A DNA stretch of 64,000 nucleotides from positions 211,035 through 275,034 of the forward strand of contig CAKJYJ010000005.1 of assembly GCA_918262735.1 (NCBI GenBank), written 5' to 3'. Below the pieces are notes generated by a model. The model was not told where the DNA came from. It saw only the letters and a program-made list of their open reading frames with translations, and did no database searches. Numbering within the stretch: the first letter of the stretch is position 1; the number at the start of each line of letters is the position of its first letter. The DNA comes from Clostridiales bacterium (GTDB taxonomy: Bacteria; Bacillota; Clostridia; Christensenellales; UBA1242). Below are positions 14,915 to 62,811 of the stretch, piece by piece. A program made the translations under genes and the position numbers.

Positions 14915-15075
14915 GTTTTTACCTCCTTGTTTAAGTTTGTATTTAAAAAACTAAAAAACCCCTCTTAAACCGAGAAAGTAAAAGAAAGGTTTGAAAACGC
15001 CAAACTTAAACTTAACCTCGGCAAGCACAAACTGTTTACGGGAACCCCCACTTGCTGTCTTTGGAAAAGGACTTA
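14915..15075 (-). promoter_or_regulatory. Possible ribosomal protein L10 leader (autoregulatory 5' UTR)
   Basis: About 160 nt of structured untranslated leader upstream of rplJ, including GGCAAGCACAAACTG...CTTGC pairings and a C/G-rich stem before a T-run. The assignment rests on position only. Confidence 0.35.
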
Positions 15076-15187
15076 TTAATTTTTACTGCGTGATTATAAC
15101 ACACCCGCATATATATGTCAACCACTTTTTATTATTATTTAACATTTTTTTAATATTTATCATAAATATAACAAAGTGAGGTCTAAA

Positions 15188-24715: not shown

Positions 24716-26107
24716 TTAATAATCACAGTTGTTTGGCGTTCTTGGGAATAAAATAACATCTCTAATGTTGTCAACGCCTGTTAAATACATAATTAACCTT
24801 TCAAACCCCATTCCAAATCCAGAATGGATGCATGAACCAAATTTTCTTAGGTTCAAGAACCAGTCAATAGAATTTTTATCAACGCCCATTTCATCACAAC
24901 GTTTTATTATTTTATTGTAGTCCTCTTCTCTTTGACTTCCGCCCATAAGTTCGCCAGAGCCTGGAACTTCTAGGTCAACCGCCGCAACAGTTTTTCCGTC
25001 TGGATTTAACTTCATATAGTATGCTTTAATGTCTTTTGGCCAATTTTTAATAAACACTGGGCCACCAAAATACTCTGTTATATATTTTTCATGTTCTTTT
25101 GCAATGTCGCCACCATATTCTGGTTCAAATTCCCACTTCACATCTGCCTTTTTAAGAATATCAATAACGTCTTTATGGTCAATTCTAACAAATTTACTTT
25201 CAAGCAATTTGGTTAGTTTTTCAATTAACCCATTTTGAACAAACTTATCAAAGAATTCCATTTCAAAAGGACAGTTGTCTAAAACATATTTAACAACATA
25301 CTTTAGCATATCCTCTTCAATGTCCATAACGCCATCTAAATCACAAAATGCAATTTCCGGCTCAATCATCCAAAATTCATTTGCATGCGTTTTGGTGTTT
25401 GAATTCTCGGTTCTAAACGTTGGGCCAAATGTGTAAATTTTACCAAAGGCAAGTGCCAGTGCCTCACCATGAAGTTGACCACTTCCAGTAATAAATGCCT
25501 GTTTGCCAAATAAATCTTTGCTCATATCAACCTTTCCGTCTTTGGTTTTTGGAAGGTCATTAAAATTTAGGGTTGTTACCTTAAACATTTGATCTGAACC
25601 CTCGCAGTCGGCAGTTGTTATTAGTGGTGTGTTAACATAAACATACCCGTTTTTTTGGAAATATTCATGAATTCCCATTGCCGCAACGCTTCTAACCCTA
25701 AACACAGCATTAAACAGGTTGGTTCTTGGTCTTAAATAAGCAATTTCTCTTAAAAATTCAACACTTGCCCTTTTCTTTTGAATTGGGTATGTTTCATCTG
25801 TTGCTTGAAAAATTTCAACCGATTTTGCCTTAATTTCAAATGGTTGTTTATTCTCTGGTGTTAAAACAAATTCACCAACAACATAAACAGTGCTTCCCAC
25901 ATTTAGTTTAACAACGTCGGCATAATTCTTTAATTTATCTGCTTCTAAAACAACCTGAACGCCCTTAAAACATGTTCCGTCGTTTAATTCCATAAAACCA
26001 AAAGACTTGCTGTCACGGGTGGTTCTTACCCAACCTTTAACCTCAATCTCCTGCCCGTTTTTTAACTCTTTTGATGTGTATAATTCTTTTACGCTTACTT
26101 CCTTCAT
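24716..26107 (-). CDS. asnS: Asparagine--tRNA ligase
   Basis: 463 aa with an N-terminal OB fold and class IIb motifs (FRTENSNTKTHANEFWMIEPE, GGSQREE, GFGMGFERL). The ATG at 26107 is preceded by GAGAGGAA. Confidence 0.9.
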   Translation of the reverse strand: MKEVSVKELYTSKELKNGQEIEVKGWVRTTRDSKSFGFMELNDGTCFKGVQVVLEADKLKNYADVVKLNVGSTVYVVGEFVLTPENKQPFEIKAKSVEIFQATDETYPIQKKRASVEFLREIAYLRPRTNLFNAVFRVRSVAAMGIHEYFQKNGYVYVNTPLITTADCEGSDQMFKVTTLNFNDLPKTKDGKVDMSKDLFGKQAFITGSGQLHGEALALAFGKIYTFGPTFRTENSNTKTHANEFWMIEPEIAFCDLDGVMDIEEDMLKYVVKYVLDNCPFEMEFFDKFVQNGLIEKLTKLLESKFVRIDHKDVIDILKKADVKWEFEPEYGGDIAKEHEKYITEYFGGPVFIKNWPKDIKAYYMKLNPDGKTVAAVDLEVPGSGELMGGSQREEDYNKIIKRCDEMGVDKNSIDWFLNLRKFGSCIHSGFGMGFERLIMYLTGVDNIRDVILFPRTPNNCDY

Positions 26108-26223
26108 AATTCCTCTCACTCTTTTAATTGTAACATAATGATAACAAAATGTAAAAACATATTTTTCATTTTTTGAAATTTCTCGCAGTAGAATACAGTA
26201 TACGGGTTTGTAAGGAATAAATA

Positions 26224-27180
26224 ATGGTTATTGTTATTATTTTTTTATCATCTTTTTGTCTTATCGTTTATGGCGGAAATAAGTTTGTTGATTCGTCAAT
26301 GGTCATTGCAAAAAAATTAAAAATCCCATCTCCTATTATTGGGGCAACATTAGTAACTATTGGAACAACAATGCCCGAACTTTTAGTTACCATTATTTCC
26401 AGCGGAGCAAACGCCAATGGAATTGCAATTGGAAATGCGGTTGGGTCAATTATTATTAATACCTGCATAATTGGTGGGGTTTTAATTGCTTTTACCCGTG
26501 TTAAAATTAATAGGTCATCGGAGTTATTGCTTAAACTTCTATTGTTATGCATTGTGGTTTTAAGTGTTATAAGCATTAATTCAAAAATAAACTATTTTGA
26601 AGCTTTGATTCTTTTATCTCTATTTTTCGTTTTTATTGTTATAAACCGCAAACAATCAAAGGCGAGTTACACCGATTACAACATAACAGGTAACAATTCG
26701 CTTTTTCAAGCCATTGTGATGTTTATTCTTTCTTCGCTTATGCTAACGTTTGGCGCTTATTATTTGGTTGATTGTGCCAAATTTTTTGCACGCTGGGCTA
26801 ATGTGAGTGAAACAATTATTGGCTTAACTGTGGTGAGTTTGGGAACCTCTTTGCCAGAACTTGTTACTTCTATTCTTGCAATAAAAAAGAAAGAACCGTC
26901 TCTTGGGCTTGGTAACGTTGTTGGGTCAAATATTATAAATAGCACATTGCTGGTTGGAATAACCGGAATTAATTGCACTAGTGCTGGTGTTGCGCTTTCT
27001 GCCACCACATCAAACCTCGCAATTCCTTTCGCGCTAATTTCAACAATTGTATTCTCTGCCCCTGCTCTTTTGAAAAAACACACCAAAAGGGTGTATGGTA
27101 TTTTACTTATGTTAATCTTTGCCACCTACTTTATTCTTCTTAATCTATCTACTTTTAACATTATTAAAATTATACAATAA
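26224..27180 (+). CDS. Calcium/sodium antiporter (CaCA / YrbG family)
   Basis: Two alpha-repeat motifs: GATLVTIGTTMPELLVTIIS and GLTVVSLGTSLPELVTSILA. Confidence 0.8.
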   Translation: MVIVIIFLSSFCLIVYGGNKFVDSSMVIAKKLKIPSPIIGATLVTIGTTMPELLVTIISSGANANGIAIGNAVGSIIINTCIIGGVLIAFTRVKINRSSELLLKLLLLCIVVLSVISINSKINYFEALILLSLFFVFIVINRKQSKASYTDYNITGNNSLFQAIVMFILSSLMLTFGAYYLVDCAKFFARWANVSETIIGLTVVSLGTSLPELVTSILAIKKKEPSLGLGNVVGSNIINSTLLVGITGINCTSAGVALSATTSNLAIPFALISTIVFSAPALLKKHTKRVYGILLMLIFATYFILLNLSTFNIIKIIQ

Positions 27181-42646: not shown

Positions 42647-42721
42647 GCGCCCATAGTGAAGTGGATATCACAATAGTCTTCGGAACTATTATGCCGAGTT
42701 CGAGTCTTGGTGGGCGCACCA
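42647..42721 (+). tRNA. tRNA-Arg (anticodon UCG), intact
   Basis: GCGCCCA TA GTGA AGTGGATA TCAC A ATAGT CTTCGGA ACTAT TATG CCGAG TTCGAGT CTTGG TGGGCGC A CCA. All four stems pair. Two hairpin terminators follow. Confidence 0.85.
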
Positions 42722-60027: not shown

Positions 60028-60303
60028 TTACTCCACAATTCTTGGCACAACAAAGTACCCCTTTTTCTTGTCTGGTGCATTTTCTAATAAGATTTCAGAA
60101 GAATAACCGCTCTTTGGATTATCTTCTCTCAGTTCGTTCATATCAATCATATTTAGTTTTCTTTCGCCATCTATATTTGCATTTTTTATTATATCTGCAA
60201 GTTCGATTAGTTTTTCAAATTCAAAATCAAAAGACTCTAGTTCCTCATCGGTAAATTCTAGTTTTGAAAGTTCTGCTAAATGCTTAATTTCTTTTTTATC
60301 CAT
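60028..60303 (-). CDS. gatC: Asp/Glu-tRNA amidotransferase subunit C
   Basis: 91 aa from the ATG at 60303, which follows GAGGAG. It has HLAELSKLEFTDEELE and the ending ...YFVVPRIVE. Confidence 0.85.
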   Translation of the reverse strand: MDKKEIKHLAELSKLEFTDEELESFDFEFEKLIELADIIKNANIDGERKLNMIDMNELREDNPKSGYSSEILLENAPDKKKGYFVVPRIVE

Positions 60304-60397
60304 TTTTAATCTCCTCAATATCTGTTAAATAGTGTATTATGTTTACTTTTAACTTTTATATAAAACAAAATATAAAAATACTCTTATGATGCTTTAT

Positions 60398-60429
60398 TAA
60401 AAAAAATCACAGGTTTGTGAACCTGTGAT
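60398..60429 (-). terminator. Intrinsic terminator in the gatC leader (attenuator)
   Basis: The minus strand reads ATCACAGGTT-CACA-AACCTGTGAT followed by T8, about 95 nt upstream of gatC and about 30 nt downstream of the leader ORF. Confidence 0.7.
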
Positions 60430-60461
60430 TGTGATTTTTAATTCCAAGCACGACAAAAGGC

Positions 60462-60521
60462 TCACATACTAATGTGATTAAGATTGTTATTATTATTATT
60501 GTTGATAATAAAAGCAATCAT
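60462..60521 (-). CDS. Candidate leader peptide MIAFIINNNNNNNLNHISM (8 Asn codons of 19)
   Basis: AAGGAGG, a 6-nt spacer, then ATG ATT GCT TTT ATT ATC AAC AAT AAT AAT AAT AAC AAT CTT AAT CAC ATT AGT ATG TGA, read directly from the minus strand. Confidence 0.55.
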   Translation of the reverse strand: MIAFIINNNNNNNLNHISM

Positions 60522-60542
60522 CTTTTGCCTCCTTGCTTATTT

Positions 60543-60571
60543 ATGGTAGCACAATCATTTGCAAAAGTCAA
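60543..60571 (-). promoter_or_regulatory. Promoter-like element for the gatC leader
   Basis: The minus strand reads TTGACT - 17 nt - TACCAT, with TG at the extended -10 position, about 20 nt upstream of the leader RBS. Confidence 0.4.
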
Positions 60572-60708
60572 CGGTTTATACAAAATCATGGTTTATATAT
60601 TTGTTTTTCTTTTTTTACCCATTATAACTAATATGAGATTTGAATAATTTGCCATTTGATTGACTTAAATTATTACAAAGTTGTATAATATCGCTCGGGG
60701 GATTTTTA

Positions 60709-61755
60709 ATGAAAAAGAATGTTGCAATAATTGGCTATGGCGGACAGGGCGCCTGGCATGCCAACCAAATAATTAAAAGTGACGTAGTTGCTCTTTCGGG
60801 GGTTTATGATATTAAACCCGAGCGAATTGAACTGGCTAGAAGCAGAGGAATTTTTACATATCCTTCGGCTGAAGAACTTTTGTCGGACAAAAACGTTGAT
60901 ATCGTTGTTATAACAACTCCAAACGACTCTCACAAAGAACTATCAATAAAAGCTCTAAATGCCGGCAAAAATGTGATATGTGAAAAACCAGTTATGTTAA
61001 ACACGTCGGATTTAGCTGAAGTTATTAAAGTTTCCAACCAAACGGGTAAGCTTTTCACCGCACACCAAAACAGAAGATATGATGTTGATTTCCTTGCAAT
61101 TAAACAATTAATTCAAGAGGGAAAACTTGGCGATGTTGTAAGCGTGGAATCACGAGTTCATGGTTCAAGAGGCATACCTTCCGACTGGAGAGGAAAAAAA
61201 GAGTATGGTGGTGGTATGCTCTACGACTGGGGTGTCCATTTAATTGACCAAATAACTCAGCTCTTACCAAACGAAGAATTAAAAAAAGTGTTCTGCACCG
61301 CCCAACACACCACCAACTTTGAAGTGGATGATGGCTTTAAGTTAACGCTAATATACAAATCTGGCATCACCGCATTTGTTGAAGTTGGAACATTAAACTA
61401 TATTGCAATGCCTAGATTTTATCTTCAATGCAAACGCGGTTCGGCAAAAATAAACGATTGGAAACAAAATGCGGAAGTGGCTTATTGTAAATATTGGAAT
61501 GAAAAAGAAGTTTTGCCTGTTCAAACCGCAGCGGGTATAACAAAAACCATGGCACCAAGAGATGAAATAACGCTAGACACATATAACCTAGATATCCCAG
61601 TTTCTGACGTGCATGACTTTTATAGAAATTTTGTATTGGCAATAGACGGAAAGGAAAAACAATACGTTACACACGAACAATCAATGTTTGTTTTGAAAAT
61701 TATAGAAAAAGCATTTGAGTCTATTGAAAAATGTCAGGCCGTGGATTTTGACTAG
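60709..61755 (+). CDS. Gfo/Idh/MocA-family NAD(P)-dependent oxidoreductase
   Basis: VAIIGYGGQGAWHA Rossmann motif and the conserved ICEKPV motif. 348 aa. Confidence 0.8.
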   Translation: MKKNVAIIGYGGQGAWHANQIIKSDVVALSGVYDIKPERIELARSRGIFTYPSAEELLSDKNVDIVVITTPNDSHKELSIKALNAGKNVICEKPVMLNTSDLAEVIKVSNQTGKLFTAHQNRRYDVDFLAIKQLIQEGKLGDVVSVESRVHGSRGIPSDWRGKKEYGGGMLYDWGVHLIDQITQLLPNEELKKVFCTAQHTTNFEVDDGFKLTLIYKSGITAFVEVGTLNYIAMPRFYLQCKRGSAKINDWKQNAEVAYCKYWNEKEVLPVQTAAGITKTMAPRDEITLDTYNLDIPVSDVHDFYRNFVLAIDGKEKQYVTHEQSMFVLKIIEKAFESIEKCQAVDFD

Positions 61756-61831
61756 ATTTTTTGGTTAAAAACACGGTGTTAAAAAAATGACACTCTAATA
61801 AAAATATGAAACCTGTTAATGAAACCCAAAA

Positions 61832-61868
61832 AATCCACACTAAATCCAGTGTGGATTTATTTTTTTTA
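61832..61868. terminator. Bidirectional terminator between the oxidoreductase and gpx genes
   Basis: AATCCACACT-AAATCC-AGTGTGGATT, flanked by A- and T-runs. Confidence 0.65.
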
Positions 61869-61902: not shown

Positions 61903-62382
61903 TTATTTTAAGAGTTCTTCTTTAACCCTATTTGCAAAACCTTCTGGCTTATCGGTGGGTGCAAAACGAGCAACAACTTCACCCTTGCGGTTAATTAAAA
62001 ACTTTGTAAAATTCCATTTAATAGATTGTGGCTTACCCTTTTCATTTTGGGTGATTAGCCATTTGTAAAGAGGATCGGCATTGCCGCCTTTAACCTCAAT
62101 TTTCTTAAATCTTGTGAATTTTGTGTTGAATTTTAATGTACAAAAGGTATTAATCTCTTCATCTGTGCCCGGTGCCTGGCGGAAAAATTGATTGCAAGGA
62201 AAATCCAAAATTTCAAATCCTTGATCTTTTAGTTCTTCGTACATCTTTTCAAGTGCATCATATTGTGGAGTGAATCCGCACTTTGTTGCGGTGTTCACAA
62301 CAAGCAAAACTTTGCCCTCAAATTTTCTTAAACTAACCTCTTCACCATTTTGTGCTAAAACATTAAAGTCATAAATATTCAT
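61903..62382 (-). CDS. gpx: Glutathione peroxidase (Cys-type)
   Basis: 159 aa with VNTATKCGFTPQY, FPCNQF and WNFTKFL signature motifs. The active-site codon is TGC (Cys), not TGA. Confidence 0.9.
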   Translation of the reverse strand: MNIYDFNVLAQNGEEVSLRKFEGKVLLVVNTATKCGFTPQYDALEKMYEELKDQGFEILDFPCNQFFRQAPGTDEEINTFCTLKFNTKFTRFKKIEVKGGNADPLYKWLITQNEKGKPQSIKWNFTKFLINRKGEVVARFAPTDKPEGFANRVKEELLK

Positions 62383-62729: not shown

Positions 62730-62811
62730 TGGTGCGAGAGAAGGGACTTGAACCCATACTCTTTCGAACTTGCCCCTTAAACAAGCGCGTCTGCCATTCC
62801 GCCACTCTCGC
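62730..62811 (-). tRNA. tRNA-Leu, class II; anticodon read by eye as AAG
   Basis: The reverse complement is GCGAGAG TG GCGGAATGGCAGACGC G CTTGT TTAAGGG GCAAG TTCGAAAGAGT ATGGG TTCAAGT CCCTT CTCTCGC A CCA. Alignment to the Bacillus tRNA-Leu(UAG) arm CTAGA-CTTAGGA-TCTAG places AAG at positions 34-36 and G at 37. The T stem has one U-U mismatch. Confidence 0.75.

Follow-up and report, generated by a model that had tools for sequence, protein, structure and literature searches.

The sequence described in this report is a 64,000-nucleotide stretch of contig CAKJYJ010000005.1 from a Clostridiales bacterium, and we refer to this whole stretch as the window. On its minus strand lies an operon for tRNA-dependent transamidation. 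Between this operon and a divergent upstream gene there is a short open reading frame (ORF), rich in asparagine codons and followed by an intrinsic terminator, which is a candidate attenuator and the subject of this work. The operon (60303-55426) consists of gatC (60303-60028), gatA (60024-58588), gatB (58584-57172), and aspS (57159-55426). Its ORFs exceed the NCBIfam cut-offs for GatC, GatA, GatB, and a bacterial-type aspartyl-tRNA synthetase (AspRS) of 577 amino acids, in agreement with the gene assignment made in a first-pass annotation of the window, and a terminator-like hairpin (55419-55392) follows aspS. ORF 24716-26107 encodes the asparaginyl-tRNA synthetase AsnRS (gene asnS), also as first annotated.

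All features of the leader are read on the minus strand. The promoter, located by sequence reading and a promoter scan, has a -35 element TTGACT (60571-60566) and, after a 17-nt spacer, a TG-extended -10 element TGcTACCAT (60551-60543, with the hexamer TACCAT at 60548-60543); the predicted transcription start lies near 60536, about 15 nt 5' of the leader ATG. A Shine-Dalgarno (SD) sequence AAGGAGG (60534-60528) is separated by 6 nt from the ATG at 60521. The leader ORF extends over 19 codons and a stop (60521-60462, TGA at 60464-60462), reads ATG ATT GCT TTT ATT ATC AAC AAT AAT AAT AAT AAC AAT CTT AAT CAC ATT AGT ATG TGA, and encodes the peptide MIAFIINNNNNNNLNHISM. Eight of its 19 codons specify Asn, seven of them consecutively (AAC AAT AAT AAT AAT AAC AAT, 60503-60483), and this run is the proposed stall site; the eighth, Asn15, is at 60479-60477. 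The terminator (60430-60399) begins 31 nt after the leader stop, with a 5' arm AAUCACAGGUU (60430-60420), a CACA loop (60419-60416), and a 3' arm AACCUGUGAUU (60415-60405). From it to the gatC ATG (60303) there are 95 nt, and the leader ORF lies 155 nt upstream of gatC. The promoter, SD, 19-codon ORF, Asn run, U8 tract, and 95-nt spacer are all where the first-pass annotation had placed them. It had described the hairpin as a perfect 10-bp stem; a hairpin with a U-run is indeed present, and its stem measures 11 bp (-13.4 kcal/mol); the first two T's of the T8 run (60406-60399) are themselves paired.

This arrangement has several properties that are expected of ribosome-mediated attenuators. 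The leader ORF has its own SD and start codon, lies on the same strand as the operon and 5' of it, and is separated from the first structural gene by an intrinsic terminator. Its codons are enriched for asparagine, which is tied to the function of the operon: the operon makes Asn-tRNA(Asn), the molecule that translation of these codons would consume, and this provides a functional logic for asparagine sensing.

The element is exceptional within the window. The motif (AAY)5-NNN-AAY-CAY-AT occurs once, against 0.00 occurrences expected from 100 shuffles; the leader ORF is the sole short ORF with four or more consecutive Asn codons in all six frames of the 64 kb; and the 238-nt leader folds with z = -4.9 relative to shuffled sequences.

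Relatives of the operon were sought first by a GatA scan of species-representative genomes, which returned only two close relatives: a Candidatus Onthoplasma metagenome-assembled genome (MAG; GatA 75% identical), which NCBI taxonomy puts in Christensenellales, and a MAG labelled “Clostridiales” (69%). Both bear the same leader, and all the remaining species representatives are below 50% in GatA identity. A search at the protein level yielded about 110 GatA clusters from gut-type metagenome assemblies, 63 to 99% identical, and contigs were examined for twelve of these clusters. The first-pass annotation had named loss of the mini-ORF and hairpin in relatives as an outcome that would count against an attenuator. 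Both were found in 10 of the 10 other distinct loci in which GatA is 67 to 84% identical and the upstream sequence is present, making 11 leaders with that of the window. The organisms that carry them are all uncultured and are represented by metagenome assemblies or MAGs only.

The peptides predicted for the related loci are MIALIINNNNNNNNLNHTSM (L201), MMIMTNNNNNNNNNLNHTSM (L209), MFFYVNNNNNNNSNHI (L203), MIITIINNNNNNNLNHI (L205), MLNIVLNNNNNNNLNHI (L002), MFAVNNNNNNNFNHI (L001), MFVIINNNNNNNVNHI (L208), MFFVVNNNNNNNNNNHI (L214), MCITLNNNFNNNLNHI (L202), and MLIKYIFSNNANNNCIHM (L207). An SD-like AAGG or GGAG precedes the leader ORF in every one of them, and a TTGAC(T/A) promoter element with a TG-extended -10 is found at an equal distance in nine of the ten, none being visible in L214. 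The genes gatC-gatA-gatB-aspS lie downstream at every leader locus that extends far enough, and the genes upstream of the leader are different at every locus. Between the U-run and the next start codon there are 17 to 166 nt, a spacer that is not conserved in sequence. The leader is made up of conserved blocks, at protein distances where neutral intergenic DNA should not align, which argues for selection.

A simpler explanation would be that the ORF arose by chance in AT-rich intergenic DNA, with a commonplace terminator or insulator beside it. Such a view could draw on the AT richness of the genome (33% GC) and on the terminator-like hairpins of the surrounding 9 kb, which are no commoner than in shuffled sequence. 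It does not account for a motif that shuffling fails to produce and that is unique among the six frames of the window, or for 11 orthologous copies at GatA distances beyond those at which neutral intergenic DNA can be aligned. Furthermore, since the upstream gene is divergent, the hairpin has nothing other than the leader transcript to terminate. The comparative data effectively refute a chance origin, and we consider its probability negligible.

To search more widely, we built a covariance model of the leader from the 11 sequences (model R1, 148 positions). Over 530 kb of scanned sequence it scored 96 to 146 bits on the leaders alone, with the next best match at 27 bits, and it found no second copy of the leader, including in the region before asnS. 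The asnS 5' untranslated region (26108-26230, minus strand) is short and unstructured, with no leader ORF, terminator, or T-box. The asparagine-responsive leader of this genome, as predicted, appears to be on the indirect route only. A BLAST search with the leader against plasmids gave no match. A scan of a metagenome collection for (AAY)5-NNN-AAY-CAY-AT gave at least 120 stretches, with no leader among the matches listed; these were poly-Asn or microsatellite-like and eukaryotic-looking.

Two of the related loci show additional features. At L203 (4129-4709) a dtd gene for a D-aminoacyl-tRNA deacylase (Pfam Tyr_Deacylase) sits between the Asn leader and terminator and gatC, and judging from this position it would be co-regulated with the transamidation operon. 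At L207 (787-1472), about 3 kb upstream of the leader and unrelated to it, there are two adjoining ORFs with matches to the Pfam family Anti-Pycsar_Apyc1.

The way in which the leaders vary is informative about what is being conserved. Together they contain 90 Asn codons (65 AAT and 25 AAC), with 5 to 10 per leader. Variation within the Asn run is confined to C or T at the third position, and is therefore synonymous. The run differs in length by whole codons (7, 8, 9, or 10), and the SD, ATG, and stop stay in frame with it in all 11 leaders. The stop codon falls inside, or 0 to 1 nt before, the segment that forms the upstream strand of the antiterminator (segment 2, below), except in L207, where it is 10 nt before. 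The N-terminal four to eight residues are variable and mostly hydrophobic. The peptides are 15 to 20 amino acids long and, outside the Asn run and an N-H-I/T motif, have no conservation of sequence or length. Within that motif all 11 leaders use CAC for His, compared to a CAT:CAC ratio of 17:6 in the operon genes and asnS (five window genes), and the synonymous third base of Asn15 covaries with a base further downstream, as U-A in four sequences and C-G in six. The invariant CAC and the covarying third base indicate an RNA-level constraint on top of the coding one.

An unguided RNAalifold prediction on the alignment of the 11 leaders returned two helices: the terminator, and a helix that we call P1, in which YCACAU of the Asn15-His-Ile codons pairs with AUGNGR at or just after the stop codon. 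In the window, P1 joins segment 1 (UCACAU; 60477-60472, spanning the third base of Asn15, His16, and the start of Ile17) to the AUGUGA of segment 2 (AUGUGAGCC; 60467-60459, overlapping the Met19 and stop codons), segment 1 being defined by RNAalifold and covariation and segment 2 by pair counts and folding. The first-pass annotation had drawn the same UCACAU:AUGUGA pairing by eye; RNAalifold arrives at it independently, and a U-A/C-G covariation is seen at alignment columns 80:103. For P1 and the terminator together, 90.9% of cells are paired and five pairs are changed on both sides, with 0 of 500 shuffled alignments as good and with only 27 to 45% of cells paired in slid controls. Four terminator pairs show compensatory change across the relatives. 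Attenuators of this class are expected to have a 1:2 helix that sequesters segment 2, and P1 provides one, with energies of -1.5 to -5.5 kcal/mol.

The third helix is an antiterminator. Its consensus pairs UGNGRRCC, just after the stop codon, with GGYYCACA over 8 bp; in the window the 5' strand is UGUGAGCC (60466-60459) and its target is GGUUCACA (60423-60416), which comprises the loop of the terminator together with the last 4 nt of its 5' arm. The pairing was found by eye and is supported by pair counts and permutations. Paired cells amount to 88.6% and three pairs are compensatory; none of 500 shuffles did as well. The central pairs change jointly (GAGCC/GGUUC, GAACC/GGUUC, GGACC/GGUCC, GGGCC/GGCCC, and GCACC/GGUGC), and one U-A pair is replaced by A-U in L002 and by C-G in L214. 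The antiterminator duplexes (-5.6 to -13.6 kcal/mol) are comparable in energy to the terminators (-10 to -16.7 kcal/mol). This register replaces the one drawn in the first-pass annotation, where AUGUGA or GCCUUUUGUCGUG was paired with CACAAUCACAGG in the terminator 5' arm; the pairing of UGUGAGCC with GGUUCACA is better supported, by its 8 bp and by its compensatory changes. The earlier AUGUGA:UCACA pairing with the proximal 5' arm has 5 bp, a mean energy of -3.4 kcal/mol, and covariation from a single pair, and we set it aside as a possible minor alternative.

As a further measure of specificity, each 5' segment was paired with every 3' segment of the alignment, and the energies of cognate and non-cognate combinations were compared over 50,000 permutations. 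Cognate antiterminators averaged -11.15 kcal/mol, compared to -7.41 kcal/mol for non-cognate combinations (1 of 50,000 permutations as good). The corresponding values were -14.00 and -11.21 kcal/mol for the terminator (14 of 50,000), -4.42 and -3.42 kcal/mol for P1 (302 of 50,000), and -3.36 and -2.53 kcal/mol for the earlier 5-bp register (1,222 of 50,000).

These structures bear on the suggestion that the product of the mini-ORF is itself a functional small peptide, for instance in signalling or at the membrane, the hairpin being its terminator or a constitutive partial terminator and nothing being sensed. The ORF is conserved and has a good SD, and leader peptides that act in trans are known (e.g., peTrpL). 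However, the peptide (15 to 20 amino acids) is unconserved outside the Asn run and N-H-I/T, and the codons of the N-H-I motif are explained at the RNA level by the segment 2 pairing, the Asn15 covariation, and the CAC bias. Such a function would leave the conserved and covarying antiterminator without a role, and the element always accompanies gatCAB-aspS. We consider a peptide function very improbable as the explanation of the leader.

Another possibility is that the AAY triplets are the binding site of an asparagine-responsive RNA-binding protein and that the ORF is incidental, as in the B. subtilis trp leader, where the TRAP protein recognizes a triplet-periodic repeat upstream of mutually exclusive antiterminator and terminator structures. 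The most conserved feature of the leaders is in fact a repeat with a 3-nt period, 7 to 10 AAY units about 20 nt upstream of segment 2, and a terminator/antiterminator pair would serve a protein sensor equally well. The details of the repeat point the other way. TRAP sites are (G/U)AG triplets with spacers and overlap the antiterminator, whereas the window triplets are contiguous, lacking the spacers of either TRAP or HutP sites, and lie off the helices; a protein bound to a repeat that overlaps no helix arm would have no obvious way to choose between the structures, and a ribosome footprint does. The triplets consist of synonymous Asn codons only, varying by C or T at the third position, and they are in frame with an SD and ATG and with a stop at segment 2, with length changes of whole codons throughout the 11 leaders. 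Finally, the loci examined have no gene for a candidate protein in linkage with the leader. A protein sensor is, in our view, very unlikely.

To examine the geometry expected for a ribosome as the sensing element, the leaders were folded one by one with a mask of 28 nt, representing the ribosome, at each codon in turn. The nascent transcript extending to the loop forms the antiterminator in 9 of the 11 when the A-site is on the late codons of the Asn run, on Asn15, or on His. In these leaders the antiterminator no longer forms when the A-site arrives at the final two to four codons or at the stop, where the mask covers segment 2. L207 retains the antiterminator even with a ribosome at the stop, and L208 was left unscored owing to shifted alignment columns. 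The leaders thus combine an antiterminator that excludes the terminator with a stop codon at which a ribosome masks the upstream strand of that antiterminator, as in established attenuators.

Taking the anatomy, the conservation, the covariation of the three helices, and the masking geometry together, the element is probably a transcription attenuator of the ribosome-mediated, leader-peptide type, with Asn-tRNA(Asn) as the signal and gatC-gatA-gatB-aspS as the genes under control; we would put the probability of this at roughly 0.8. All of the comparative and structural tests that were run support the asparagine-sensing attenuator proposed in the first-pass annotation, to the extent that sequence analysis can do so. 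Transcription would begin about 15 nt 5' of the leader ATG, and a ribosome would translate the leader while the polymerase approaches the terminator some 60 nt further on. With Asn-tRNA(Asn) plentiful, the ribosome would clear the Asn codons, arrive at the last codons or the stop, and cover segment 2; after its release, segment 2 would be taken by segment 1 and perhaps also by the SD region. This would leave the terminator 5' arm free for its 3' arm, and transcription would end at the U-run before gatC. With Asn-tRNA(Asn) scarce, the ribosome would stall in the seven-codon run or on Asn15, covering segment 1 and leaving segment 2 free. As the target strand of the antiterminator emerges, the 5' strand would pair with it before the terminator 3' arm has been made, the terminator could not nucleate, and the operon would be read. 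More non-discriminating AspRS and amidotransferase would then yield more Asn-tRNA(Asn) from aspartate, and expression would respond in this way to the asparagine supply.

Several observations weigh against this interpretation or limit how firmly it can be held. P1 is weak and has an internal mismatch in 7 of the 11 sequences, and in 6 of 11 the folding predicts an antiterminator in the nascent transcript with no ribosome on it at all, so that the default state of an untranslated leader is uncertain. The equilibrium fold of the full-length leader is the terminator in the window and six others when no ribosome is present, and it favors the terminator in most leaders with the ribosome late in the Asn run. 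A switch would accordingly have to be kinetic, as it is in the classical systems, and for the folding models used here equilibrium thermodynamics alone neither proves nor disproves it. A ribosome stalled at the first Asn codons would leave segment 1 uncovered. Two leaders have interrupted Asn runs, NNNFNNN in L202 and NNANNN in L207. The sequences used to test the helices are those on which they were initially traced by eye, and since these number only 11 and are related, the shuffle statistics overstate independence. The physiological logic would also change if GatCAB were needed for Gln-tRNA(Gln), or if asnA or asnB were present.

One feature of the leaders goes beyond what a simple attenuator needs. 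A block CCUUUUG lies directly 3' of the ORF (60460-60454 in the window), is the same in 11 of 11 leaders, and is complementary to the SD region: in the window, GGCAAAAG next to the SD (60529-60522) is complementary to CUUUUGUC after the ORF. The duplex of CAAAAGG with CCUUUUG forms in 10 of 11 leaders, and by eye the lengths of the A and U runs match (3, 4, or 5). In the permutation comparison the cognate duplexes averaged -10.7 kcal/mol and the non-cognate ones -9.6 kcal/mol, a difference that is not significant (p ~0.07), and shuffled sequences were often nearly as good. We make no claim for this helix as part of the mechanism, given that its covariation is not significant. CCUUUUG might act as an anti-SD or closing helix after one round of translation or as a pause signal, or it might simply supply the CC of the antiterminator.

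The same complementarity gives some substance to the idea that the leader acts apart from termination, through mRNA stability, through the terminated RNA as a small RNA, or as a report of a general slowdown in translation; small RNAs derived from attenuators are known (e.g., rnTrpL). The enrichment of the leaders for one amino acid only, with at least five Asn codons in each, fits poorly with a general signal, and the ribosome-binding site of gatC, which lies 17 to 166 nt past the terminator in unconserved sequence, makes direct translational control unlikely. With no significant covariation in the SD pairing either, we think it very unlikely that roles of this sort explain the leader in place of attenuation, and they could coexist with it.

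The locus was also compared with Rfam. No T-box match was found in the window at the Rfam gathering score, nor in 60250-60750 at E <= 10, as the first-pass annotation had anticipated in seeing nothing T-box-like there. No Rfam family at all matches the leader region beyond noise level, even at E <= 10. The best leader-family score was 15.7 bits for Phe_leader, against a gathering score of 55 (E = 6.8, noise), and the thresholds of the leader families (Phe, His, Trp, Leu, Thr, and others) were not reached. As a positive control, the same scan recognized T-boxes (RF00230; gathering score 93) at three other loci: L210 (2951-3206; 124.9 bits), L211 (2602-2876; 118.0 bits), and L006 (3971-4311; 108.7 bits). 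In L210 and L211, with GatA 61% identical to that of the window, the T-box precedes a short archaeal-type aspS (~433 amino acids) with gatCAB behind it, and AAC (Asn) is the triplet that aligns to the specifier position. L006 is Clostridium polyendosporum (GatA 46%), and its T-box is at an equivalent distance. One further locus, L212 (600-1070; GatA 63%), has neither leader nor T-box; there the terminator of the upstream gene and a promoter run into a gatC that is called at only 62 amino acids. Among the more distant gatCAB loci of Clostridia, most lack both a T-box and a leader ahead of the operon.

The first-pass annotation had noted that the equivalent operon of C. acetobutylicum has been described as controlled by a T-box. 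The passage of PMC4206432 that cites Saad et al. (2012, J Biol Chem 287:20382) describes the operon of non-discriminating (ND) AspRS and gatCAB in that species as being under T-box control, and the T-boxes of L210 and L211 agree with it. Exchanges between T-boxes and leader peptides have been documented before, and in Bacilli a paralogue of hisS is known to carry a His leader (PMC2965389). As for a peptide leader on gatCAB, of which the first-pass annotation knew none, full-text literature searches turned up no description of a leader peptide built on Asn codons.

Among known systems, the closest in design are the classical leaders of E. coli and Salmonella (trpL, hisL, pheL, leuL, thrL, the ilv leaders, and pheM). 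The window leader shares with them a short, SD-led, codon-rich ORF; alternative 1:2, 2:3, and 3:4 helices that end in an intrinsic terminator; and a stop codon placed such that a terminating ribosome covers segment 2. hisL in addition has seven identical codons in a run. An aminoacyl-tRNA synthetase gene as the target also has precedents, in pheM-pheST and in the Bacilli His leader on a hisS paralogue (PMC2965389). The window leader differs from the classical examples in its amino acid, asparagine, and in its target, which is a tRNA-dependent transamidation operon rather than a biosynthetic pathway. It has no sequence similarity to them, its antiterminator takes in the loop and only the distal part of the 5' arm, not the whole of that arm, and its host belongs to an uncultured gut clostridial group (Christensenellales-like) in which T-boxes are usual.

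The Asn T-box on ND-AspRS-gatCAB operons, on the other hand, is the closest in function, with the same pathway, a terminator/antiterminator output in the 5' leader, and the status of tRNA(Asn) as the signal, and it is found in the nearest outgroup loci that were recovered (GatA 61%). A T-box works without translation, by direct binding of uncharged tRNA, and the window leader has no T-box elements. The gene order is different as well: in L210 and L211 the archaeal-type AspRS of ~433 amino acids is encoded before gatC, whereas the bacterial-type AspRS of 577 amino acids in the window is encoded after gatB.

The two kinds of sensor may also differ in what they report. By established biochemistry, EF-Tu does not deliver Asp-tRNA(Asn), and so the ribosome gets only correctly amidated Asn-tRNA(Asn); a T-box reads only whether the 3' end of the tRNA is free. 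A T-box would be expected to register Asp-tRNA(Asn) as charged and a ribosome would not, and the pools that are sensed need not be the same.

Some other features of the window may be recorded here. A match to the Rfam family L10_leader (ribosomal protein L10 leader) at 14943-15082 on the minus strand scores 69.7 bits against a gathering score of 44, and so the lineage uses at least one other known leader-type regulator. A strong palindromic hairpin AAATCCACACT...AGTGTGGATTT (61831-61858) has T-runs on both strands and looks like a bidirectional terminator; it lies between a gene for a 348-amino-acid oxidoreductase (60709-61755, plus strand) and a convergent glutathione-peroxidase-like gene (61903-62382, minus strand). 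The window encodes tRNA-Glu(CUC) (2212-2286), tRNA-Arg(UCG) (42647-42721), and tRNA-Leu(AAG) (62730-62811), and has no tRNA-Asn gene.

To our knowledge, attenuation by leader peptides is known for only a few amino acids, mostly in Proteobacteria and Actinobacteria. The leaders described here appear to constitute a family of asparagine-specific attenuators on gatCAB-aspS in an uncultured gut clostridial lineage, with every property that can be asked of a peptide leader at the level of sequence. On balance we lean toward a more specific view, that this is the first asparagine-sensing ribosome-mediated attenuator, that it holds the regulatory position of the Asn T-box in a neighboring lineage, and that it reports the end product of AspRS and GatCAB, including any backlog of Asp-tRNA(Asn). 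If this is true, asparagine joins the amino acids that are sensed in this way, and a tRNA-dependent transamidation operon joins the targets. The peptide-leader loci (GatA 67 to 84%) and the Asn T-box loci (61%, with another gene order) would allow two RNA sensors, and the replacement of one by the other, to be compared on a single pathway. The difference between a T-box that responds to the charge state of the tRNA and a ribosome that responds to Asn-tRNA(Asn) deliverable by EF-Tu would then bear on the fidelity problem posed by Asp-tRNA(Asn). The 148-position covariance model could be used to annotate the leader in gut metagenomes and to flag genomes that rely on the indirect pathway to asparagine.

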